From assembly GCA_963845755.1 (NCBI GenBank), contig CAWJTV010000022.1:1-64000 (forward strand): 64,000 bases of DNA. Reading direction: 5' to 3'. This document shows, one piece after another, positions 183 through 64,000 of this stretch (its first letter is position 1; every line of letters begins with the position of its first letter). Both the position numbers and the translations under genes were made by a program. The notes under the pieces were generated by a model. It was not told the origin of the DNA. It searched no databases and saw only the letters and a program-made list of their open reading frames with translations. The DNA comes from an uncultured Planctomycetota bacterium (GTDB lineage Bacteria > Planctomycetota > Planctomycetia > Isosphaerales > Isosphaeraceae).

Positions 183-803
183 TCACGAACGGGTTGGAGG
201 CGGAAGTCTTCGGAGCTTCACCAGTCCCAGATCCTGGTACAAGTAACGGCTCGGGTATCGTGTATAGCCCGGCCTGGGCTCCTTGTGCTTCTCACATAAC
301 CAGCGACGAAGCCGGGTCTCCGCGTGGGAGTTCACCACCTGGTAGGCTCGGCCCACTGTCCCGTGACTGAAGTAGTTCCACCATCCCCGCAAGGTCCGGT
401 TCAGGCGGGTGACCTGGTCGGTCACGGAGAGCCACGACGACGACCGGCTGGTGAGATCGCTGATCTCCCGGCAGAGCCGGTGGATCTTCTTCTGCGAGGG
501 ACGGGCTCCCACATAGGACTGGCCCGTCCGGCGATCGTAGCAGCGGCCGAAGCTGTAGCCCAGGAAGTCGAACGTCTCTTCCGGCACGTGGCACTCCCGC
601 GTCTTCGTCTCGTTGACCGTCAGCTTCAGCTTCGCCATCATGGCCCGCATCCGCTCCATCGCCGTTGCGGCGGTGGTCCGGCAGCAGATCACGAAGTCGT
701 CCGCATAGTTGACGATGTGAGCCCTCAGGGTGCGGTCGTGTCCCGCGGTCTTCCAGCCCAGCACAAAGCGTCGCATGTAGATATTCGCCAACAATGGTGA
801 GAT
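183..803 (-). pseudogene. ltrA: Group II intron RT/maturase, C-terminal half (RT motifs incl. YADD, plus X/thumb domain; no HNH endonuclease)
   Basis: ISPLLANIYM...VNYADDFVI...KLTVNETKT...FDFLGYSF...LNRTLRGWWNYF. Confidence 0.93.
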
Positions 804-804
804 C

Positions 805-2449
805 ACGCCCCCAACAATGTTGCGAAGAACCCTGTTGGGGGCCTCCCTCAAAAGGGGACGGACTGACCCGATACACGATGCGGACCTCCTGCTCGTCGAT
901 CTCGACCTTCTTCACCAAAGCCCGAACGATCTCCCGTCGCGTGTCCCAGTCCGGCTCTTGTAACTCCTGGGAAACGCGTCTCGCGAACTCCTCCAACTGG
1001 CCGATCACCAGCCGCAGTTCCGCTTCCTGGTTGGCCTCGTCAATCCGCTGCCGACACTCATCCTCCAGTTTGGCCAGGCGCTCGCGCGCCGCCAAGATCC
1101 TCGGCTCGAATTCCGACTTGTCGAGCAACCCTCGCCGTAGGCATCGATCAATCGCGAGATCATCTTTTTTAGATTCGCAATCAATTTGTTGAGATGCTTC
1201 ACCTCGCGGTCTGGGCCCGTCTCCGGCCCTTGCAGCCGCCGCTCGTACTCCGCCCGAACCCGTTCGGGCTCGGACAAGAGATGACGCACGTCTTCCCAGA
1301 CGGCGGCGTCCAAGACATCCGTGCGGACCTGCTTGTTCCAGCACAGGCGCTGGCCACCGAAGCGATAGGCGTCGGAGCCCGTGCAGCGGTAGTAGGCGTA
1401 GGGGACCTTGCCCTTGGCCGAGGCCCGGCTCACCGGCTTGCCGTAGCAGCCGTAGCCGCACCGCTTGCAGACGACCAACCCCTGGAGGAGATAGCGGCCG
1501 CCACGGGGCCGTTCGCGACGGCGTTGCCGGTTCTCCTCGAGTTGAGCTTGAACCGTCCCGAAGAGTTCCTCGCTCACCAGCCCGGGGACATCGATGAAGA
1601 TTTGTTCTTCCGAAGATGTATCGACCCGAGAGACGGGACGCCGGGGCTGCTCAGGACGGCCGCGTTGCGGCGCGGAGCCGCTTCGGCTTGAGGCGCGCCG
1701 CGCGCGTCTTGCCGAAGCCGGCCGTCCCCTTGTAGGCAGGGTTCCTGAGATACGACCAGATCACCGAGCGGTCCCAGGCCGATTTGCCAGTCCGCGTGGG
1801 GACGCCGTCGCGTTGCAGGCGTCGGCAAACCTCACCGATCGAGCATCGTTCCTGGCCGACCCACTCGAAGATCTTCCGCACGATCCGCGCCTCGTCGGCC
1901 ACGACCTGATAACGCGCCTCGCCGCCGCCCTCATGCTTGCCGACGTAACGGTAGCCGTAGGGCGCGCCGCTGAGCACGTTGACCGAGCCGTGGCGGGCGG
2001 CGTACTGCTTGCCCCGGCGACAGCGCTCCATGATCTTGGCACGCTCGTACTCGGCGATCATGCCCTGGACCTGCAGCGAGCAGGTTCTCCTCGGGTCCGC
2101 GGCCTAGGGGATTGCGCAGGAAGACGACCTCAACGCCGCACCGGGCGAGTTCCTCGAGTATCAAAACCTGATAGGCATATTTGCGTGAAAGTCGATCGGG
2201 ATCGAGGATGTAGAGGCGGTCGATGGTCCCAGCGGCGGCCTGGTCCCGAAGTCGTTCGAGGCCCGGGCGGATCAGGATATCCCCGGTGTAGCCATCGTCC
2301 ACGAAGCACAATTCGGGCTCGCATTCCAAGCCGTCGCTCGCGACGCGCTGCCTGATCGCCTCAAGCTGGCTGGCGATCGTGCCCTCCTTGGCCTGTTGGT
2401 CCCCGGAGACCCGGGCATAGGTCCCCACACGGAGATCGTGATTGAGCAT
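805..2449 (-). CDS. Large serine recombinase (resolvase + recombinase + zinc-ribbon + coiled coil); several apparent frameshifts; no stop codon inside the element
   Basis: Pieces in ORFs 1931-2449 (YARVSG catalytic Ser, DDGYTG, RPGLERLRD, DRLSR), 1651-2061 (APYGY, LRNPAYKG), 1005-1577 (YLLQGLVVCKRCG...YYRC) and 292-1461 (RREIVRALVKKVEI). Confidence 0.9.
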
Positions 2450-2455
2450 GGCTGG

Positions 2456-2669
2456 TCAAGCTCCCCTGGCCTTTGATCGGAGTCCCTGCATCGTTGTGGT
2501 GGCCTGCTCGTTGTCGTTGGATCGCGATCGCGGCCGTTCCAGGTGGCGAGAGACGACCGGGATCAAGGCCTGGTATGCCAGCGCGATCGACTGATCCTGA
2601 AGCCGGGTGAACTCGAAATGGCGGGTGACGGGAGGGCTGAGGGCTGGACCTCCGTTGAGATGTGATCAT
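2456..2669 (-). CDS. Small (about 70 aa) accessory ORF upstream of the LSR, apparently frameshifted
   Basis: GAGGAGGAG RBS precedes ATG at 2669. Rejoined reading MITSQRR...RHFEFTRLQDQSIALAYQALIP ends just before the LSR start. Confidence 0.5.
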
Positions 2670-2823
2670 GTTGACTCCTCCTCACCAAGACCGCGGCTGT
2701 CAGCCTGCCTTGGACGGGGATCGAGCCCGGGCTGCCATCCTTGCCCATACTTCGGTCGGAGCCGCGATCTGGAAATGACAGAGTCAGGGATCAGGGACGA
2801 TTTTGCAACATTGTTGGGGGCGT

Positions 2824-3530
2824 GATCGGCGACCCTTGCGGGGTCCCTTTCCCCTCGTCCTTGTTGCGCGTCGTGCGGTGATGCCGCCCCCGCGCGTCGA
2901 TCTCTTCCACCGGCGTCTCCAGCCACATCTTCAGCAGTCGGAGCATCCGGCTGTCGCTGATGCGTCGGGCCGCCGACCTCATGAGTTCGGGGTGGGGGAT
3001 ACTGTCGAAATAGCCGGATAAATCGGCATCGATCACGTCCGTATGGCCCGCTCGCAGCAACGCCTCGACCTGCCTCACGGCGTCCAGGGCGCTGTGCTCG
3101 GGGCGATACGCGTGCTGTTCGGGTTGCAGGTCCGTCTCGAAGATCGGCTCCAGCACCAGGACAGCCGCCATCTGGACCACGCGATCCTTGATGCAAGGAA
3201 TCCCCAGCGGCCGGAACTTGTCCGATTGATCATCTTTGTGGATGTTCACCCGTCTGACCGGCTGGGATTGATACGTCTCCTTCCGCAGTTCTTCCGTCAA
3301 TTCGCCCAGCCACGCGCTCCAGCCCCTGCGCCTCGATGTCCTCGAAGCTCTGCCCGTCCACGCCCGGTGCGCCGCCATTGGCTTTGCAGCGGTCGTAGGC
3401 GAAGCGGAGGATGTCTTCGCGGTACAGCTTGTCGTAGAGGGCGTAGAAGCGATAGCCCGGCGCAGTCCTTGGCTTTCGAGTGCAGGGCGTCCTGGAGCTT
3501 CCTGACCTTGGGTGGAGGTGTTAGGCTCAT
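2824..3530 (-). pseudogene. ltrA: Group II intron RT, N-terminal half (frameshifted)
   Basis: [17 protein letters not shown]..., [61 protein letters not shown]. Confidence 0.92.
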
Positions 3531-58367: not shown

Positions 58368-59318
58368 CATCTTGAGCAAAGGAGGGGCTCCGGGCAATCT
58401 GGTGGTAGGTCCCAGCCACCCTGACCCCGAAGGAGCCCTCCCGTGCCGGTACGGATTGTCACCATCTTGGGCCGTCTCAAGCAAGACCTCGCCGACGGGC
58501 TTTCTCGCGAGGCCATCGAGCAGGCATGCAAGCAGGAGAAATACTCGTGGCGCGCAGCGGATGCTCGATCCGGTCACGACCGTCTATCTGTTTATCCTCC
58601 AGATCCTTCACGGCAACACCGCCTGTTCGCACGTGGTCCACTTCGGCCGATGGAACTTCACCGATGCCGCCTACTGTGCCGCGCGGAAGCGGCTCCCCCT
58701 GGCGGTCCTCCGCCGCCTTGCTGCGCGGATCGCCGCGAGTGTCCGGACGGCGACGACGGCCCAATCGACCTGGCACGGCCACCGGGTCTGGCTCCTCGAC
58801 GGGTCGAGCTTCTCGATGCCCGACACCCGCGAGCTGCAGGAGGCATTCGGCCAGCCCAGCGGCCAGCGGCGGGGATGCGGCTTCCCGGTCGCCAAGTTTC
58901 TGGCACTCTTCGACCTGGCCACCGGCATGCTCCTGCGGGTCGAGCCGGCGCCGCTCCGCTCGCACGAGATGGCGCGATCTCGCCGTGGCCACCTCCGCTC
59001 TGAACCCCGGCGACATCGCGCTGGGTGACCGCGCCTTTTGCTCATACGCTCACCTGGCCATCCTCCTGAACCGCAAGCAGCACGGGGTCTTCCGCGCGCA
59101 TCAGCGCCAGATCATCGACTTCACTCCGGGTCGGCCGCAGGCGGTGCGGGGCAAGGGGAAGAAGCCGCACGAGGCAAAGATCCGTCCGCATTCGCGGTGG
59201 GTGCTCTCGCAGGGCGAATCCGATCAAGTAGTCATCTGGTCCAAGCCCAAGTCTCATCCGAGATGGATCACCAAGGATGAGTATGCGTCACTGCAAGAAG
59301 AGATCGCGGTGCGTGAGC
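58319..59318 (+). mobile_element. IS4-family element, 5' part (frameshifted transposase from 58443), truncated by IS66
   Basis: Left end GAATGCCACGAAGTTAG resembles the IS4-group TIR. Transposase motifs: AYCAARKRLP, WHGHRVWLLDGS, GFPVAK, GDRAFCSY. Confidence 0.82.
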
Positions 59319-59531
59319 GAGTGCGTCCGGTGAACCACATCTTCAAAGCGGTTCACGGGCGTGAGATGATGTTCGGGGCACCGTCTTGATTCTTTCACTG
59401 TGCTCGGCGCACGCGATCATCCCGCGCTCGCGCCGGGCCGAGACGAACTTGGGGCGGGACAAACCTTGAGGGGCGCGCGCAATCGCCCCGCGCTCGTCCG
59501 GGGTGACGAGGAGCGCGGGGCTCGGGTGCGG

Positions 59532-61106
59532 TCACTCAGTCCCGTCGGCGCCGGCCTGGTGCAACTCCTGCCAGCGGTCCGGCAGCAGTTCGTCGATCCG
59601 CTTCGCCGGGTGCGTGCTGATCCGATCGAGCCCATCGCGGAGGTAAGCCTGGGGGTCGATCCCCAGATTCTTGCAGGTCGTGCACAAGCTCATCAACACG
59701 GCCGCCGTCTGGCCTCCCTGGTCGCTCCCCGCGAATAACCAGTTCTTCCGTCCCAGCGCCACGGGCTTGAACGCGCGCGCGCACGCACCGTTGTCCAGTT
59801 CGAGGAACCCGGCCTCCAACGGACGCTTCAGGGCCTCCCAATGGTTCAAGGCATACTGGATCGCTTCGCCGATCGGACTCTTGGGCAGAACCTTGGGCTG
59901 CTCGGCTTCCAGCCAGGCGTGAAACTTGTCGAAGATCGAACGCGATCGCTCGTTTCGCAGTTCGTGCCGGAACGCGACGAAGGCCTCGTAGTCCGCGGTC
60001 GCGCGCTTCTTGGCGTCGCGTTCGACGTCGTAGAGCAGGCTGATCCATGCCAGCGCCTGATGGGACCGTTGCGGGTCGACGGTCCGCGCCTCGTAGAACT
60101 TCCGTCGCGCGTGCATCATGCAGCCGACCTCGATAATCTCGCCCGACTTGTACAGGCCGTCGTAGGCCGAATAGGCGTCGGCCTGGAGATAACCCTGGAA
60201 GTCCTTGAAGATCTCCCGGGGCCCGGTGGCGCTGCGGTCCGGCGTGTAGCGATAGACCACGTAAGGATGGCCGCGGTCGCCGACGGAGACCCAGAGCCGG
60301 CCGGTCTTGATCCCCTTGCCGTCGTGGTCCTGCACCGGCACCGTCGTGTCGTCGTTCTGGACGACCCTGGAGCTGAGGATCTTCTTCAGCATCAGATCGA
60401 CGATCGGCTTGAGCAGATCGGCGATCGTGGCCATCCAGTCGCACATCGTTAACCGCGACAACTCGACGCCCGAGCGATCGAGGATTCCCTCGAGGCGATA
60501 GAGCGGCAAGTGATCGGCATATTTGCTGACGGCGACGTAAGCCAGCAGCCCCGGGCCTGGCAGGCCCTTGTCGATCGGCTCGGGGAGCACGTCGGCGATC
60601 ACGACGTTGGCCTGGCAGTCCTGGCAAGCGTACTTGGGGCGGATGTGTTCGAGGATGACCAGGCGGGCGGGGATGAATTCGAGTTGCTCGCGGACTTCCC
60701 GGCCGATGCAGGTGCGCTCGGCGCCGCAGTCGGGGCAAGTGCGTTGTTCGGGCGGGACGTCGTGCAAGACCGGCACTCGGGGCAGGCTCGCCGGCAACGG
60801 CTTGCGTCCGTGGCCCTTCTTCTGGGCCGCACTCGGAGCGGGCGTCGGGGCCGGGGCCGGCTCCGGGGTCGGGGCGGGTGTCGGCGCCGCCTCGGCCTGC
60901 TCCAGGATCTCCCGGGCGAAGAGCAAGAGCTGGGCCGGGTCGATCCGCTCCCCTTTGGGACCGTAGCGCTGGCGGAGGAGCTGCTCGAGCTGGTGCTGGA
61001 GCTTCTCGTTGAGATGGACCTGCTGGGCGAGCGACTTGAGCAGCTCACGGATGAGCTGATGGGCCGCCTCCAGGTCGTCCGGGAGTGGGTCCGCGAGGGT
61101 GATCAT
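59532..61106 (-). CDS. tnpC: IS66 transposase TnpC
   Basis: Leucine zipper, YGPKGE, CPDC...CQDC, KYADHLPLYR, LQADAY, CMMHARRKF, ALGRKNWLF, ELLP. Confidence 0.95.
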   Translation of the reverse strand: MITLADPLPDDLEAAHQLIRELLKSLAQQVHLNEKLQHQLEQLLRQRYGPKGERIDPAQLLLFAREILEQAEAAPTPAPTPEPAPAPTPAPSAAQKKGHGRKPLPASLPRVPVLHDVPPEQRTCPDCGAERTCIGREVREQLEFIPARLVILEHIRPKYACQDCQANVVIADVLPEPIDKGLPGPGLLAYVAVSKYADHLPLYRLEGILDRSGVELSRLTMCDWMATIADLLKPIVDLMLKKILSSRVVQNDDTTVPVQDHDGKGIKTGRLWVSVGDRGHPYVVYRYTPDRSATGPREIFKDFQGYLQADAYSAYDGLYKSGEIIEVGCMMHARRKFYEARTVDPQRSHQALAWISLLYDVERDAKKRATADYEAFVAFRHELRNERSRSIFDKFHAWLEAEQPKVLPKSPIGEAIQYALNHWEALKRPLEAGFLELDNGACARAFKPVALGRKNWLFAGSDQGGQTAAVLMSLCTTCKNLGIDPQAYLRDGLDRISTHPAKRIDELLPDRWQELHQAGADGTE

Positions 61107-61145
61107 ACCCTATACTACGTTGACGGGTGCTCGATTGTTGGCGCA

Positions 61146-61332
61146 TTATGCTCCTGTCGGTAGATTATTCTCCGAATTTCGAAGGGGAGTGGCGGGCCGC
61201 GAGTAGCGGACGCGCCGTCGGGCCTTGTCCAGATCGATGCCGGCCAGGAGGGCGGCGAGTTCGGCGGTGGTCATCTCGACGCGATCGGCCGCCGCGTCCG
61301 GGATGCGGAAGGTGCCGCGTTCGAGCCTCTTG
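61146..61332 (-). pseudogene. tnpB: IS66 TnpB, C-terminal part
   Basis: KRLERGTFRIP...ELAALLAGIDL...RRRVRY. Confidence 0.88.
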
Positions 61333-61422
61333 ATGCTGGCATCACAGGACCCTCGTTCTTGTGGCGTTACACAAATCCTGAGACGTTGGGCTACTGCCGC
61401 CACGAATCGGCGGCCTCTCTTG

Positions 61423-63604
61423 CTACCGGTCGGGACGGTCCTTGGGAACGACCAACTCAGGGTGCCGGGCGGCGATCCAGGAGTTCTTTCGTCTGGCCAG
61501 TTGTCGCAGGCGACGAACCTCGTCCTTGTCGGCCCACACGATCAGATGCTTTCCCGAAGGCGTACGCCGCGAATGGACCCAACCCTGCTTGATCCAATAA
61601 TGGACCTTCTGGGCGATGACGCCGAGTTTCCCGGCCAAGTCGGGGATCCACCACTCGTCCTGGCCGACGAGGTCGTCGCGGAACAGTTCTCCGACCAGCC
61701 CAAGTTCACGGACCAACGCCCCGATCGTTCCCGCCGTGAACACGCCGCGACGGCGCGGCGGGACGAAGCCCTCGGCATTGAGCCGCGCGGCGATCTGCGA
61801 CAGGTGAAGTCCTTCTCGATGGAGTTGCTTGATTCGTTCCGTGAGGCGTCGAAAATCCTTCAATTGCTCATACCTGCCGACTGGCCTCGCGACCTGCTGT
61901 TGGGTTGTCATGCCGCCGAGCCAAACGATCGTTACCTCGTTGAGCTCAGTCGCCTTGTCGGCCACGACAATGACCCGCTCCACCGCGCAGCGCACGATCT
62001 GCTTGCGATCCATCGCCGACGTGCCTGGTGCGTGCCAGAGCGCGGCGACGCTCTCGGAGAGCGATCGAATCCGTTGGCGATCGGCGTCGTTCAGCGTCGC
62101 CGGCAGTCTCGTCAGGAACCGATGGTAATCCTCCTCCGTTTGACGCTGCTTCTTCAGCGCGTCCTCCCACCGCGCCTCGAGTGTCCGCGCCACGAGTCGG
62201 TTCTCGGGCTCCACGGCCTGATACTGCCGCTCGGCCCTCTCGACCTCCTGGCGTGCGCGTTCCAGAGTCTGACGCCAATGGTCGTGGAGGCGCTTGCGCT
62301 CTCGCTCGGCGTTCTCGATCGCGCGTAGGCTCAGGTCCAGCGCAGCGGGCTCCAACTGCGCGGAGCACTTCCTTCGCGACCAGGTCGTCCAGCGTCTTTG
62401 CCGAGATGCACCCGCACGGCTCGTCCAGGGCCAGCCGCCAATACTCGCCGCAGTGATAGCCGGGCTTCTTGTCGGCCTTGTATCGCGTCGTCATGTGGCG
62501 GCCGCATTTCCCACAGACGACCAGGCCGGGCAGCAAGGCCTCGCCGCGTTTGGGCACGCCCCGCGTGTCGTGGAGCGATCGATTCTGTTTGAGGCGTTCC
62601 TGATTCGCGAGATAGCGATCCCAGCTAATGTACGCTGGGAGCCGATCCGGCAGGAACACGGCCAACTCCTCGGGCGGCACGAACCACTTGCCGCCTTCGG
62701 CTCGACCCGTCGTGGGATTCTTCGTCCCCGCGCGATGTAGGCCATAAGCGTATGCCCCCGCATAGATGGGGTGTCGCAAGATCGACAGGACTCGACTGGG
62801 AGAGGCTGGCTTCCACTCCAGCTCCCCAATGCGCCCACCGCGATGACGGCGAAATCCCAGTTGCAGGTTGTTCACGACCAGGTAACGGAAGACCGCGTAG
62901 GCGGAACCGAGTTCCTCGAACTTCTCGAACACCAACTGAATCATTCCACGCGCCTGCTCGTCAGGCTCTTGAATGATCTCGCCCGTGGCCGTCTTGAGGT
63001 ATCCCAGCGGAACGGCCAGGAACAGCTCGCCGCGCTCCGCTTTGTTCCGACTGCCTCGAAGCAAACGATTGTACATAGTAATCAATTCGTATTCGCTCAT
63101 TGCGCTTTTCATGCCAAGGAGGAGACGATCGTTACTGTCCAAGGCATCGTAGACGCCATCTTGATCGCATAGCAGGGTGCGAAAGATGCCGCAGACGTCG
63201 ATAAGACGATGCCATTCGGTATTCGACCGCGACACCCTGCTAAGCTCCAACCCCAGCACGATCCCCACGTGGTTCAAGCTCACTTCCGTCATCAACCGCT
63301 GGAAGCCCGTGCGATGGTCGGTCAACTTGCCGCCGTGGCCCTGATCCTCGTCGATGATCACCACCCGCTCTGCGGGCCAACCGAGCCGTTGCGCGAACTG
63401 CGCCAGAGCATACTGCCGTTCGCGAGACTCGCGGTTCTCGAGGACTTGCTGCGGCGTTGACTGCCGCACGTACACGATCGCGAGTCGATCGAGATGCCGA
63501 TCGCCAATCTTCGAGCTCGACCTCTGGCCGAAGGTGGAGGTCGATGGAGTCTCGTCGATTGATCTGTCCGTGCGATTGACGGCCCGTGCATCACGAGATT
63601 TCAT
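61423..63604 (-). CDS. Large serine recombinase, about 725 aa (apparent frameshift near 62355)
   Basis: AIVYVRQST catalytic Ser, LELSRVSR, VPLGY, LRHPIYAG, LVVCGKCG zinc ribbon, VEPENRLVARTLE, C-terminal HTH-like segments. Confidence 0.92.
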
Positions 63605-63788
63605 CGCGCACCTCCTGAGCGGTGCGAGGCGCGCCGAGTTGTCGAGTCACGATGTCGCTGAGGGTGAGCAGCGTTCGTTGACGCTGCTCGTCCGTCAGTC
63701 GGCTCCAGAGTTGGTCCAGCACCGACGGCCGAACGACCGACGTGCGCGGGGGGGAGCAACGAGTCCGGCGTCTCGCGACATGGGGCAC
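63591..63788 (-). CDS. Small (about 65 aa) accessory ORF overlapping the LSR start
   Basis: AAGGAGG RBS; LWSRLTDEQRQRTLLTLSDIVTRQL helix; contains the RBS (CAGGAGGTG) for the LSR GTG/ATG start. Confidence 0.62.
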   Translation of the reverse strand: MPHVARRRTRCSPPRTSVVRPSVLDQLWSRLTDEQRQRTLLTLSDIVTRQLGAPRTAQEVRDEIS

Positions 63789-63915
63789 CTCCTTGGATCA
63801 CGGGGTGTTGAGCTTCGATCCATTCCGCCAGCCGCATCAGGCCGGCCAGCGCGATTATGGGGGTGTCCGACGATTCCTGTAAAGTCGAGAGGATGGGGGC
63901 AGTCTTACTCGTACT

Positions 63916-64000
63916 TCTTGGCCCAGACGGCCAGGCCATCGCGATCCCAGTACAGGATCTTGATGCGGTCGCGGCGCTTGTTGACGAAGACGAAGAGATG
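63916..64000 (-). pseudogene. tnpB: IS66 TnpB, N-terminal part (runs off the window)
   Basis: Minus-strand translation [28 protein letters not shown]. Confidence 0.9.

Follow-up and report, generated by a model that had tools for sequence, protein, structure and literature searches.

What allows a serine recombinase to settle again and again at one codon of a gene that belongs to another mobile element, and does such a guest ride in its host or disable it? The question is raised by a locus near the end of a 64,000-nucleotide stretch of DNA from an uncultured Planctomycetota bacterium of the Isosphaeraceae (the window: positions 1 to 64,000, forward strand, of contig CAWJTV010000022.1, assembly GCA_963845755.1), where a gene for a large serine recombinase (LSR) lies inside tnpB of an insertion sequence of the IS66 family. 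An earlier note, made from the letters alone, had described an LSR mini-element inserted precisely in IS66 tnpB and had proposed that it both rides in its host and disables it. The open reading frames (ORFs), Pfam matches, junctions and a survey of homologues bear out the first of these claims, and the splitting of IS66 tnpB by an LSR element is confirmed. The account that we favour, and hold to be very probable, is that of a cargo-free element of 2588 bp whose target attachment site (attB) is a tnpB motif, and which is also copied passively when IS66 transposes. Our results strongly support the targeting of IS66 tnpB and support the riding.

The window is contig C22 of a genome assembly of 14.3 Mb in 49 contigs (87.9% complete). 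The features of the locus are the following, with the evidence for each in brackets:

C22 59319-64569, minus strand: composite IS66::LSR, 5251 bp, running past the window end (blastn limits common to all copies)
59319..61332, minus strand: IS66 part 1, left terminal repeat up to the junction (blastn limits common to all copies)
59532..61106, minus strand: tnpC, IS66 DDE transposase, 524 aa, intact (Pfam DDE_Tnp_IS66, zf-IS66, LZ_Tnp_IS66, DDE_Tnp_IS66_C)
61146..61331, minus strand: tnpB C-terminal fragment KRLERGTF..., 61 codons plus stop (PF05717 62-100, ORF listing)
61328..61332, no strand: attR-side core TCTTG, with the putative crossover AA (minus strand) at 61330-61331 (sequence, junction comparison)
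61333..61422, minus strand: right end of the element, P arm of its own attachment site (attP), with the conserved GTGATGCCA (41 unique right ends, attP symmetry)
61423..63604, minus strand: LSR gene, 726 aa without a spurious T at 62357 (PF00239, PF07508 and PF13408 on the intact C20 copy)
63594..63755, minus strand: conserved peptide region SPPR...LDQLW..LTDEQRQRTL..., predicted to be helical (alignment, AlphaFold2, third-codon-position variability)
63591-63788, minus strand: 65-aa ORF that includes the conserved peptide region (ORF listing)
63604..63918, minus strand: body of the frame-b ORF, 105 codons, +1 relative to the tnpB frame (open frame, codon-like periodicity, alignment, AlphaFold2)
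63748..63754, minus strand: invariant run of seven C, G7 on the plus strand (left-end comparison, short-read contigs)
63779..63794, minus strand: Shine-Dalgarno sequence AAGGAGG (63794-63788), 6-nt spacer and ATG (63781-63779), in the tnpB frame (left-end comparison)
63854..63883, minus strand: putative sigma-70-like promoter TTTACA-18-CATAAT in the left end of the element (10/12 matches, near-invariant columns)
63916..63920, no strand: attL-side core TCTTG, with AA (minus strand) at 63918-63919 (sequence, junction comparison)
63917..64000, minus strand: tnpB N-terminal fragment ...WAK, then KYE and stop; the start lies at C22 64123, outside the window (PF05717 2-64)

The host is a member of the IS66 family by its DDE_Tnp_IS66 transposase, by the order tnpA, tnpB, tnpC on the minus strand, and by its ends GAGTGCGTCCGGTGAAC... 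and GTGTCCGTCCGGTGAAG..., which form imperfect terminal inverted repeats. In the window copy both tnpC and tnpA are whole and only tnpB is divided, at W-A-K|R-L-E. The N-part comprises the first 69 codons, after which the minus-strand reading runs into the element, adds KYE and terminates at 63905-63907; the C-part KRLERGTFRIP... runs from 61331 down to 61146 and comprises the last 61 codons plus the stop. The two halves cover positions 2-64 and 62-100 of the PF05717 profile. The split at WAK|RLERGTF, the ending WAKKYE and the 5-bp shared core TCTTG at 61328-61332 and 63916-63920 were thus read correctly in the earlier note. Between the two TCTTG junctions the minus strand reads 2588 bp, which hold the LSR gene and the small-ORF region only. 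No cargo gene is found among the Pfam matches in the element, and no relaxase or mobilisation family is matched in Pfam, PHROGs or the ESM Atlas; an origin of transfer (oriT) is beyond the reach of these tools.

The element had been described as a small ORF plus an LSR of about 725 aa. This holds for the small ORF (65 aa) and for the copy on contig C20, in which the LSR is an intact ORF of 726 aa, but in the window the gene is not one ORF: it appears as two, of 552 aa (61946-63604) and 310 aa (61423-62355). The cause is one extra T at 62357, which is missing from six of the eight near-identical copies in the genome and from the contigs of all four public sequencing runs (X1-X4). The frameshift in the window is an assembly error. 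Single-base insertions or deletions beside GCGC make up most of the differences between copies (for example at window positions 61994, 62160, 62258, 62298, 62357, 62729 and 63031). These cluster at GCGC, and the one in the window LSR is contradicted by short-read contigs. They look like systematic long-read errors, probably at a modified GCGC motif, and suggest that the assembly contains many spurious frameshifts. The LSR itself carries the catalytic domain (PF00239 Resolvase, E 5.5e-16, residues 42-193) and the C-terminal domains of its class (PF07508 Recombinase, 221-341, and PF13408 Zn_ribbon_recom, 357-413), and matches PHROG 95, integrase, with E 1.5e-53. To judge from these domains it is a typical large serine recombinase, and in its motif VYVRQSTPQQ we take the Ser to be the nucleophile.

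We collected 102 loci with an LSR match, 24 from species-representative genomes and 78 from metagenomes of the Joint Genome Institute, and defined close homologues by an LSR identity of 66% or more. The earlier note had proposed a survey of this kind, and the outcome agrees with its reading. Among close homologues with enough DNA, an N-part of tnpB that ends at the W-x-K codon lies upstream in 57/69 loci, and K-R-L-E-x-G follows directly after the element at 47/57 readable junctions (44 recognised by a motif test and three, L044, L047 and L088, by tblastn). Below 66% LSR identity tnpB is cut at this codon in 0/7 loci upstream and 0/6 downstream. Sixty related genomes were too distant for this test: their best LSR is 55% identical, and tnpB pieces stand beside the LSR in 0/28 of the loci from other genomes. 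Most records with the element are labelled Planctomycetota or come from soil or freshwater, and not from Firmicutes; the element family is widespread in metagenomes of these two habitats.

The targets differ much more than the site. Across the survey the tnpB pieces are 36-91% identical to those of the window and TnpC is 29-80% identical, and clustering of the 58 loci that carry the insertion, the window among them, gives 34 clusters of elements and 41 of tnpB flanks. Five different tnpB contexts are occupied by one element cluster. Elements 99.8-100% identical over 900 nt stand in flanks that are only 63-82% identical; such pairs of identical elements with different flanks occur even within single metagenome-assembled genomes (MAGs), as in L045/L046, on one contig, and in L044/L047. 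Identical elements in flanks this different are direct evidence that the recombinase takes the element into different IS66 elements at a single codon. A quick maximum-likelihood tree (IQ-TREE, SH-aLRT support) places all 35 tnpB-targeting rows in one clade with 100% support. Nested in that clade is a subclade of four rows, of which both rows with a readable target adjoin a gene for an ATP-dependent DNA ligase (PF04679). The target has here switched from a gene of a transposon to one for DNA repair.

The loci of this subclade (L084, L085 and L092, also L093, L117-L119 and L143) have LSRs 68-71% identical to that of the window, and their elements end in ...GCTTC|TA vs ...ATC|AA. In L084, L085 and L092 the motif Y-(Q/R)-P-G-x-R...W-x-K-x-K-P of the ligase follows the element, and PF04679 is matched on the L084 flank.

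Where the strands would be exchanged can be read from the junctions. Most loci have C-AAG at both of them; L045 and L046 have G-AAG on the tnpB side, and L068, and likewise L061, have AAA on one side. Across all loci attL and attR have a single dinucleotide in common, the AA at the start of the Lys codon, which we infer to be the crossover dinucleotide. AA is non-palindromic, which fits the constant orientation of the element: in every case one strand encodes both the LSR and the tnpB pieces. When attP is reconstructed, its arms match about the AA centre at 26/50 positions (attB at 16/50), and each arm has a block GATT..TGTAA at about 36-46 nt from the centre. The claim that the element lacks terminal inverted repeats is therefore right for the very termini, but not for the attP arms, which show this dyad symmetry. 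A palindrome TGATGC-TG-GCATCA, to which attention had been drawn, is indeed present at 61331-61344 but is not conserved: relatives keep GTGATGCCA, while the second half of the palindrome and the following bases vary, and we reject the palindrome as a functional hairpin or site.

A short shared core, a fixed orientation and an empty site that closes exactly are what conservative recombination between attP and attB would leave. The element would accordingly move by site-specific recombination through its own LSR, with, as attB, the stretch of IS66-family tnpB that specifies the conserved motif W-x-K|R-L-E, strand exchange at the AA of the Lys codon, and excision probably through a circle. Exchange at AA would make the element always co-directional with tnpB and leave no target duplication, and an attB that is a conserved coding motif would enable it to enter very different IS66 elements.

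The empty site is found in a genome of the same genus (G001). Its closest LSR match is only 47% identical, and it carries this IS66 at 91-97% nucleotide identity. In four of its IS66 copies, those at 96-97%, tnpB is uninterrupted, and two of the four read TGGGCC-AAG-AGGCTCGAACGC, the exact closure of the window junctions. The prediction that excision would restore tnpB is thus borne out by two natural uninterrupted copies that are identical to the reconstructed site; intact copies in the same genome, with which the note had proposed a comparison, were not found, as described below. The other two uninterrupted copies (L146 and L151) have CAG (Gln) for AAG (Lys) at the codon matching window 61329-61331. 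This turns the presumed crossover AA into CA, and CAG is possibly an integration-resistant allele. One contig of public run X4 also joins C22 61327 to 63916, with 2588 nt skipped and 5 nt ambiguous. We do not count it as excision: the run holds diverged IS66 variants, and the contig may be a relative's.

In its own genome the element occurs in nine copies, eight at 99.57-100% identity and one at 97.25%. All nine interrupt tnpB at one and the same site, and the arms of this IS66 adjoin the element in every copy; in this genome the element is never seen apart from IS66. The eight near-identical copies are spread over six contigs and their flanks differ. No insert-free copy of this IS66 was found in the assembly, and there is no full-length tnpB among its 18 PF05717 matches, which comprise eight N-parts and nine C-parts (one of the latter from the diverged copy), besides one N-truncated tnpB on contig C9.

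Several copies bear the marks of IS66 transposition, of which an 8-bp target duplication is typical. The 8-bp duplication GCGTGAGC stands on both sides of the window copy (59311-59318 and C22 64570-64577), which interrupts an IS4-like repeat (58372-59318 and C22 64570-65078); this repeat is uninterrupted on contigs C30, C11, C5 and C24, where the two window flanks meet with an overlap of exactly 8 bp. On C20, two copies in inverted orientation (715079-720331 and 738505-743758, about 18 kb apart) carry AACTGGTC/GAGCCGCC and GAGCCGCC/AACTGGTC, respectively. This reciprocal swap indicates an inversion between the copies by homologous recombination, each having once had its own duplication. Single-nucleotide polymorphisms (SNPs) are linked across the composite: the C20a and C13 copies both have C, G, T, C at the SNPs of the IS66 part together with G, C at those of the LSR part, and the C22, C20b and C21 copies share a second pattern. 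SNPs linking the IS66 and LSR parts are also present in short-read contigs. Finally, the ninth, older copy has diverged in both parts, the IS66 arm to 95.7% and the element to 97.25%. The duplications, the SNP linkage and the divergence of both parts favour transposition of the composite as one unit.

Two observations concern single copies. The window holds three levels of nesting, with the LSR element in IS66 and IS66 in the IS4-like repeat, whose broken ORFs match no Pfam family. The diverged copy (L043, C13 343104-351972) is cut 36 nt before its left end and joined there to position 1049 of a young copy's IS66 arm; the join is due either to rearrangement or to the assembly at a contig end.

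We can now return to whether the guest rides or disables. Riding is supported by the eight composite copies, the 8-bp duplication and the swapped C20 pair, whereas disabling is not, because the composite is the form that multiplied. Inside IS66 the element would be copied passively at each IS66 transposition, and the 5.25-kb composite would have made at least eight near-identical copies here, with 8-bp duplications of the IS66 type; the transposing form would have been the composite itself and not an emptied IS66. A different history would have IS66 multiply first and the LSR then enter each copy separately until attB was saturated, the composite itself not being transposable. The LSR does move between different IS66 elements elsewhere, the copies are too alike for the order of events to be read, and if TnpB is essential its splitting should block transposition. 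However, LSR recombination is conservative, so that eight filled copies out of eight would need repeated gains of copy, no empty copy is left in the assembly, SNPs of IS66 and LSR are co-inherited (C20a with C13; C22, C20b and C21 grouped), and divergence affects both parts of the older copy (95.7% and 97.3%). We regard separate entry as unlikely. Less likely still is that the insert disables the IS and that dead composites spread by duplication or recombination of larger segments. The split of tnpB in every copy and the absence of a full-length tnpB from the assembly would agree with this, but the copies lie on six contigs with differing flanks, the window copy has an exact 8-bp duplication in a target element that is uninterrupted at four places, two further duplications are found at the C20 pair, and the window copy has kept both tnpC and tnpA intact. 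To the idea that the recombinase module has no mobility of its own and travels as a fixed passenger in one IS66 subfamily we give hardly any credence: the element is never apart from IS66 in this genome, but the same IS66 (96-97%) stands without the insert in the same-genus genome with a junction that closes exactly, identical elements occupy tnpB genes only 63-82% alike, and the nested subclade targets the DNA ligase gene.

Several points weigh against the combination of site-specific entry and passive copying that we favour. Among close homologues 12/69 upstream and 10/57 downstream sides are not tnpB; some adjoin the ATP-dependent DNA ligase gene instead, and three more (L053, L054 and L125) have other flanks. 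Only one of the eight copies has a clean duplication, two more form the swapped pair, and the other five have unresolved or recombined flanks. The SNPs are few and the assembly is error-prone, and IS66 copies already in place may conceivably have been invaded by the LSR element one after another. Neither an excised circle nor a newly emptied site was seen for this strain; an attP circle junction is absent from the Logan contigs of runs X1-X4, a source in which rare forms are dropped. TnpB, moreover, is considered necessary for IS66 transposition, and if it is essential, transposition of the composite lacks an explanation. Our literature search found no statement of this need; one article (PMC3971601) mentions only beta-clamp motifs in TnpB and TnpC.

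How the LSR would be expressed in the integrated state is suggested by the left end of the element. We compared 43 unique left ends and 41 unique right ends, with the first A of the Lys codon as position 1. The best promoter-like site of the region is TTTACA-18-CATAAT (63883 to 63854), with 10/12 matches; its columns are nearly invariant in the 43 left ends, and TTTACA overlaps the outer attP repeat. Further in, AAGGAGG is present in 40/43 left ends, followed 6 nt later, at position 139, by ATG (35) or GTG (8). The frame of this start is the tnpB frame; it is open to the invariant C7 run in 43/43 left ends and stops soon after it in 39/43. After the run the conserved peptide LDQLW..LTDEQRQRTL... 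continues in the -1 frame relative to the ATG at 63781. Over 36 aligned sequences its mean column identity is 72%, AlphaFold2 gives mean confidence scores (pLDDT) of 91, 98 and 94 for the ten-residue blocks of residues 11-40, and the third-codon-position variability agrees with this frame. Upstream, the -1 frame has stops before the run in 42/43 left ends, and in 13/43 there is no start between the last stop and the run. The simplest reading would be a -1 ribosomal shift or polymerase slippage at the C7 run, and in the integrated state the element would then rely on its own promoter and on a short ORF whose frame changes at this run.

The run (63748-63754) parts two conserved reading frames, and three frames can be read through it. 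Short-read contigs show seven C, and two of the eight assembled copies show six. In L045, L046 and L056 the small-ORF frames appear fused; we set these aside, taking their C6 runs as possible homopolymer errors in what are apparently MAGs of a single long-read campaign. A stimulatory RNA structure after the run received no support (consensus -2.44 kcal/mol, one covarying pair of ten).

The third of these frames, frame b (+1 of tnpB), points to the circular state. It is stop-free before the C run in 42/43 left ends and after it in 43/43, from the junction to the LSR start, where its TGA overlaps the ATG of the LSR (ATGA). Its conservation is codon-like at positions 31-135 and its N-part is conserved in the alignment; the predicted product has a helix at 24-37 (block-mean pLDDT 82-87 for residues 21-40) and then a disordered tail. 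In the integrated state frame b has no conserved start. At the opposite, right end, GTG (61345-61343) and ATG (61342-61340) point outward behind an SD-like GAGGG. The ATG is present in 38/41 right ends and is in frame b, the other three having AAG preceded by GTG, and the SD-like motif is present in 41/41. Since the start lies at 61342-61340, the ORF would be complete only across attP in the excised circle, where it would be coupled to the LSR start by ATGA. We infer from this that the frame-b ORF couples recombinase synthesis to the circular state. The small ORFs find no usable family in Pfam, PHROGs or the ESM Atlas (best Atlas score 0.76), and what is modelled with confidence in their predicted structures amounts to two-helix pieces. 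We also considered a rescue of the tnpB C-fragment by an in-frame start in the element (85-aa ORF, 61146-61403) and rejected it, as the start is present in only 15/38 unique right ends.

Taken a step further, the element might be a self-regulating IS66 parasite that senses its own state. Integrated, it would express its LSR weakly, through the promoter and the -1 change at C7; as a circle it would complete an ORF of 109 codons whose ATGA overlap boosts the LSR for re-integration. It would also be a reversible switch on the host IS, because excision restores tnpB and integration splits it, and IS66 could escape by changing the AA (AAG to CAG). This is a tentative proposal that we think more likely wrong than right. 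The left end, where an attP arm, a promoter, three reading frames and the C7 frame change are crowded together, may be a compact example of state-dependent recombinase control.

Full-text searches that paired IS66 with serine recombinase terms gave no description of this element. Phage and prophage-like LSR integrases have attB in conserved coding genes such as comK, sigK and spsM. Like them, the enzyme described here has three domains, attP dyad symmetry and an attB in coding sequence, and precise excision restores the gene; unlike them, it moves no phage or other cargo, and its target in a multicopy transposon offers many sites and passive copying. IS607 has a small serine recombinase, TnpA, usually with an RNA-guided TnpB. 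The present enzyme is a 726-aa three-domain LSR, and tnpB here belongs to the unrelated IS66 Orf2 family PF05717. In Tn4451 the circle junction is said, in work by Lyras and Rood from 2000, to form a promoter for TnpX, whereas here it would complete an ORF coupled to the recombinase start, and the control would be translational.

With Tn4451/Tn4453 (TnpX) and Tn5397 (TndX) the element shares an LSR as sole mobility enzyme and, probably, a circular form. According to Guedon et al. 2017 (PMC5704250), Tn4451 uses many target sites with a GA dinucleotide and carries resistance cargo; our element, unlike Tn4451, is highly site-specific (one codon in 41 contexts) and cargo-free. The same article places integrative and mobilisable elements (IMEs) with serine integrases at internal sites of traG, Maff2-related and SNF2 genes of integrative and conjugative elements (ICEs) of the Tn5252 type. 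On that description the likeness is close: a serine integrase, a fixed internal site in a conserved gene of another mobile element, disruption of that gene and carriage in cis by the host. It differs in that the host here is an insertion sequence and the guest a mere 2.6 kb, with no relaxase, replication or cargo genes. IMEs have an oriT, a relaxase or other mobilisation genes of their own; no gene of that kind was matched here.

A serine integrase can thus specialise on a conserved codon of a transposon helper gene. A minimal element would gain many safe landing sites per genome in this way, and a free ride within and between genomes. The loci also provide a natural set of LSR/attP/attB triplets with a defined and conserved attB and, as a natural experiment, bear on the question whether IS66 can transpose without TnpB. 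For annotation they are a trap, in that split tnpB genes and "pseudogene" IS66 copies can be nested elements.

Two further LSR loci of this genome were noted. The window's other LSR mini-element (183-3378, minus strand; Resolvase 1931-2449, Zn-ribbon 1005-1577, broken into several frames) sits in a group II intron reverse-transcriptase gene, with RVT_1 1-127 at 2791-3378 and the remainder of the intron gene, RVT_1 121-204 plus the maturase domain, at 183-851. The window therefore contains two unrelated LSR elements, each in a conserved gene of another selfish element. On contig C9 (2800-7200, L041) a single-copy LSR of 639 aa, 35% identical to the one studied here, lies in tnpB of a second IS66 (TnpC 44% identical). 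It cuts tnpB elsewhere, before ...SFDGL, with a TnpA-like C-terminus upstream and the remainder of tnpB and tnpC downstream.

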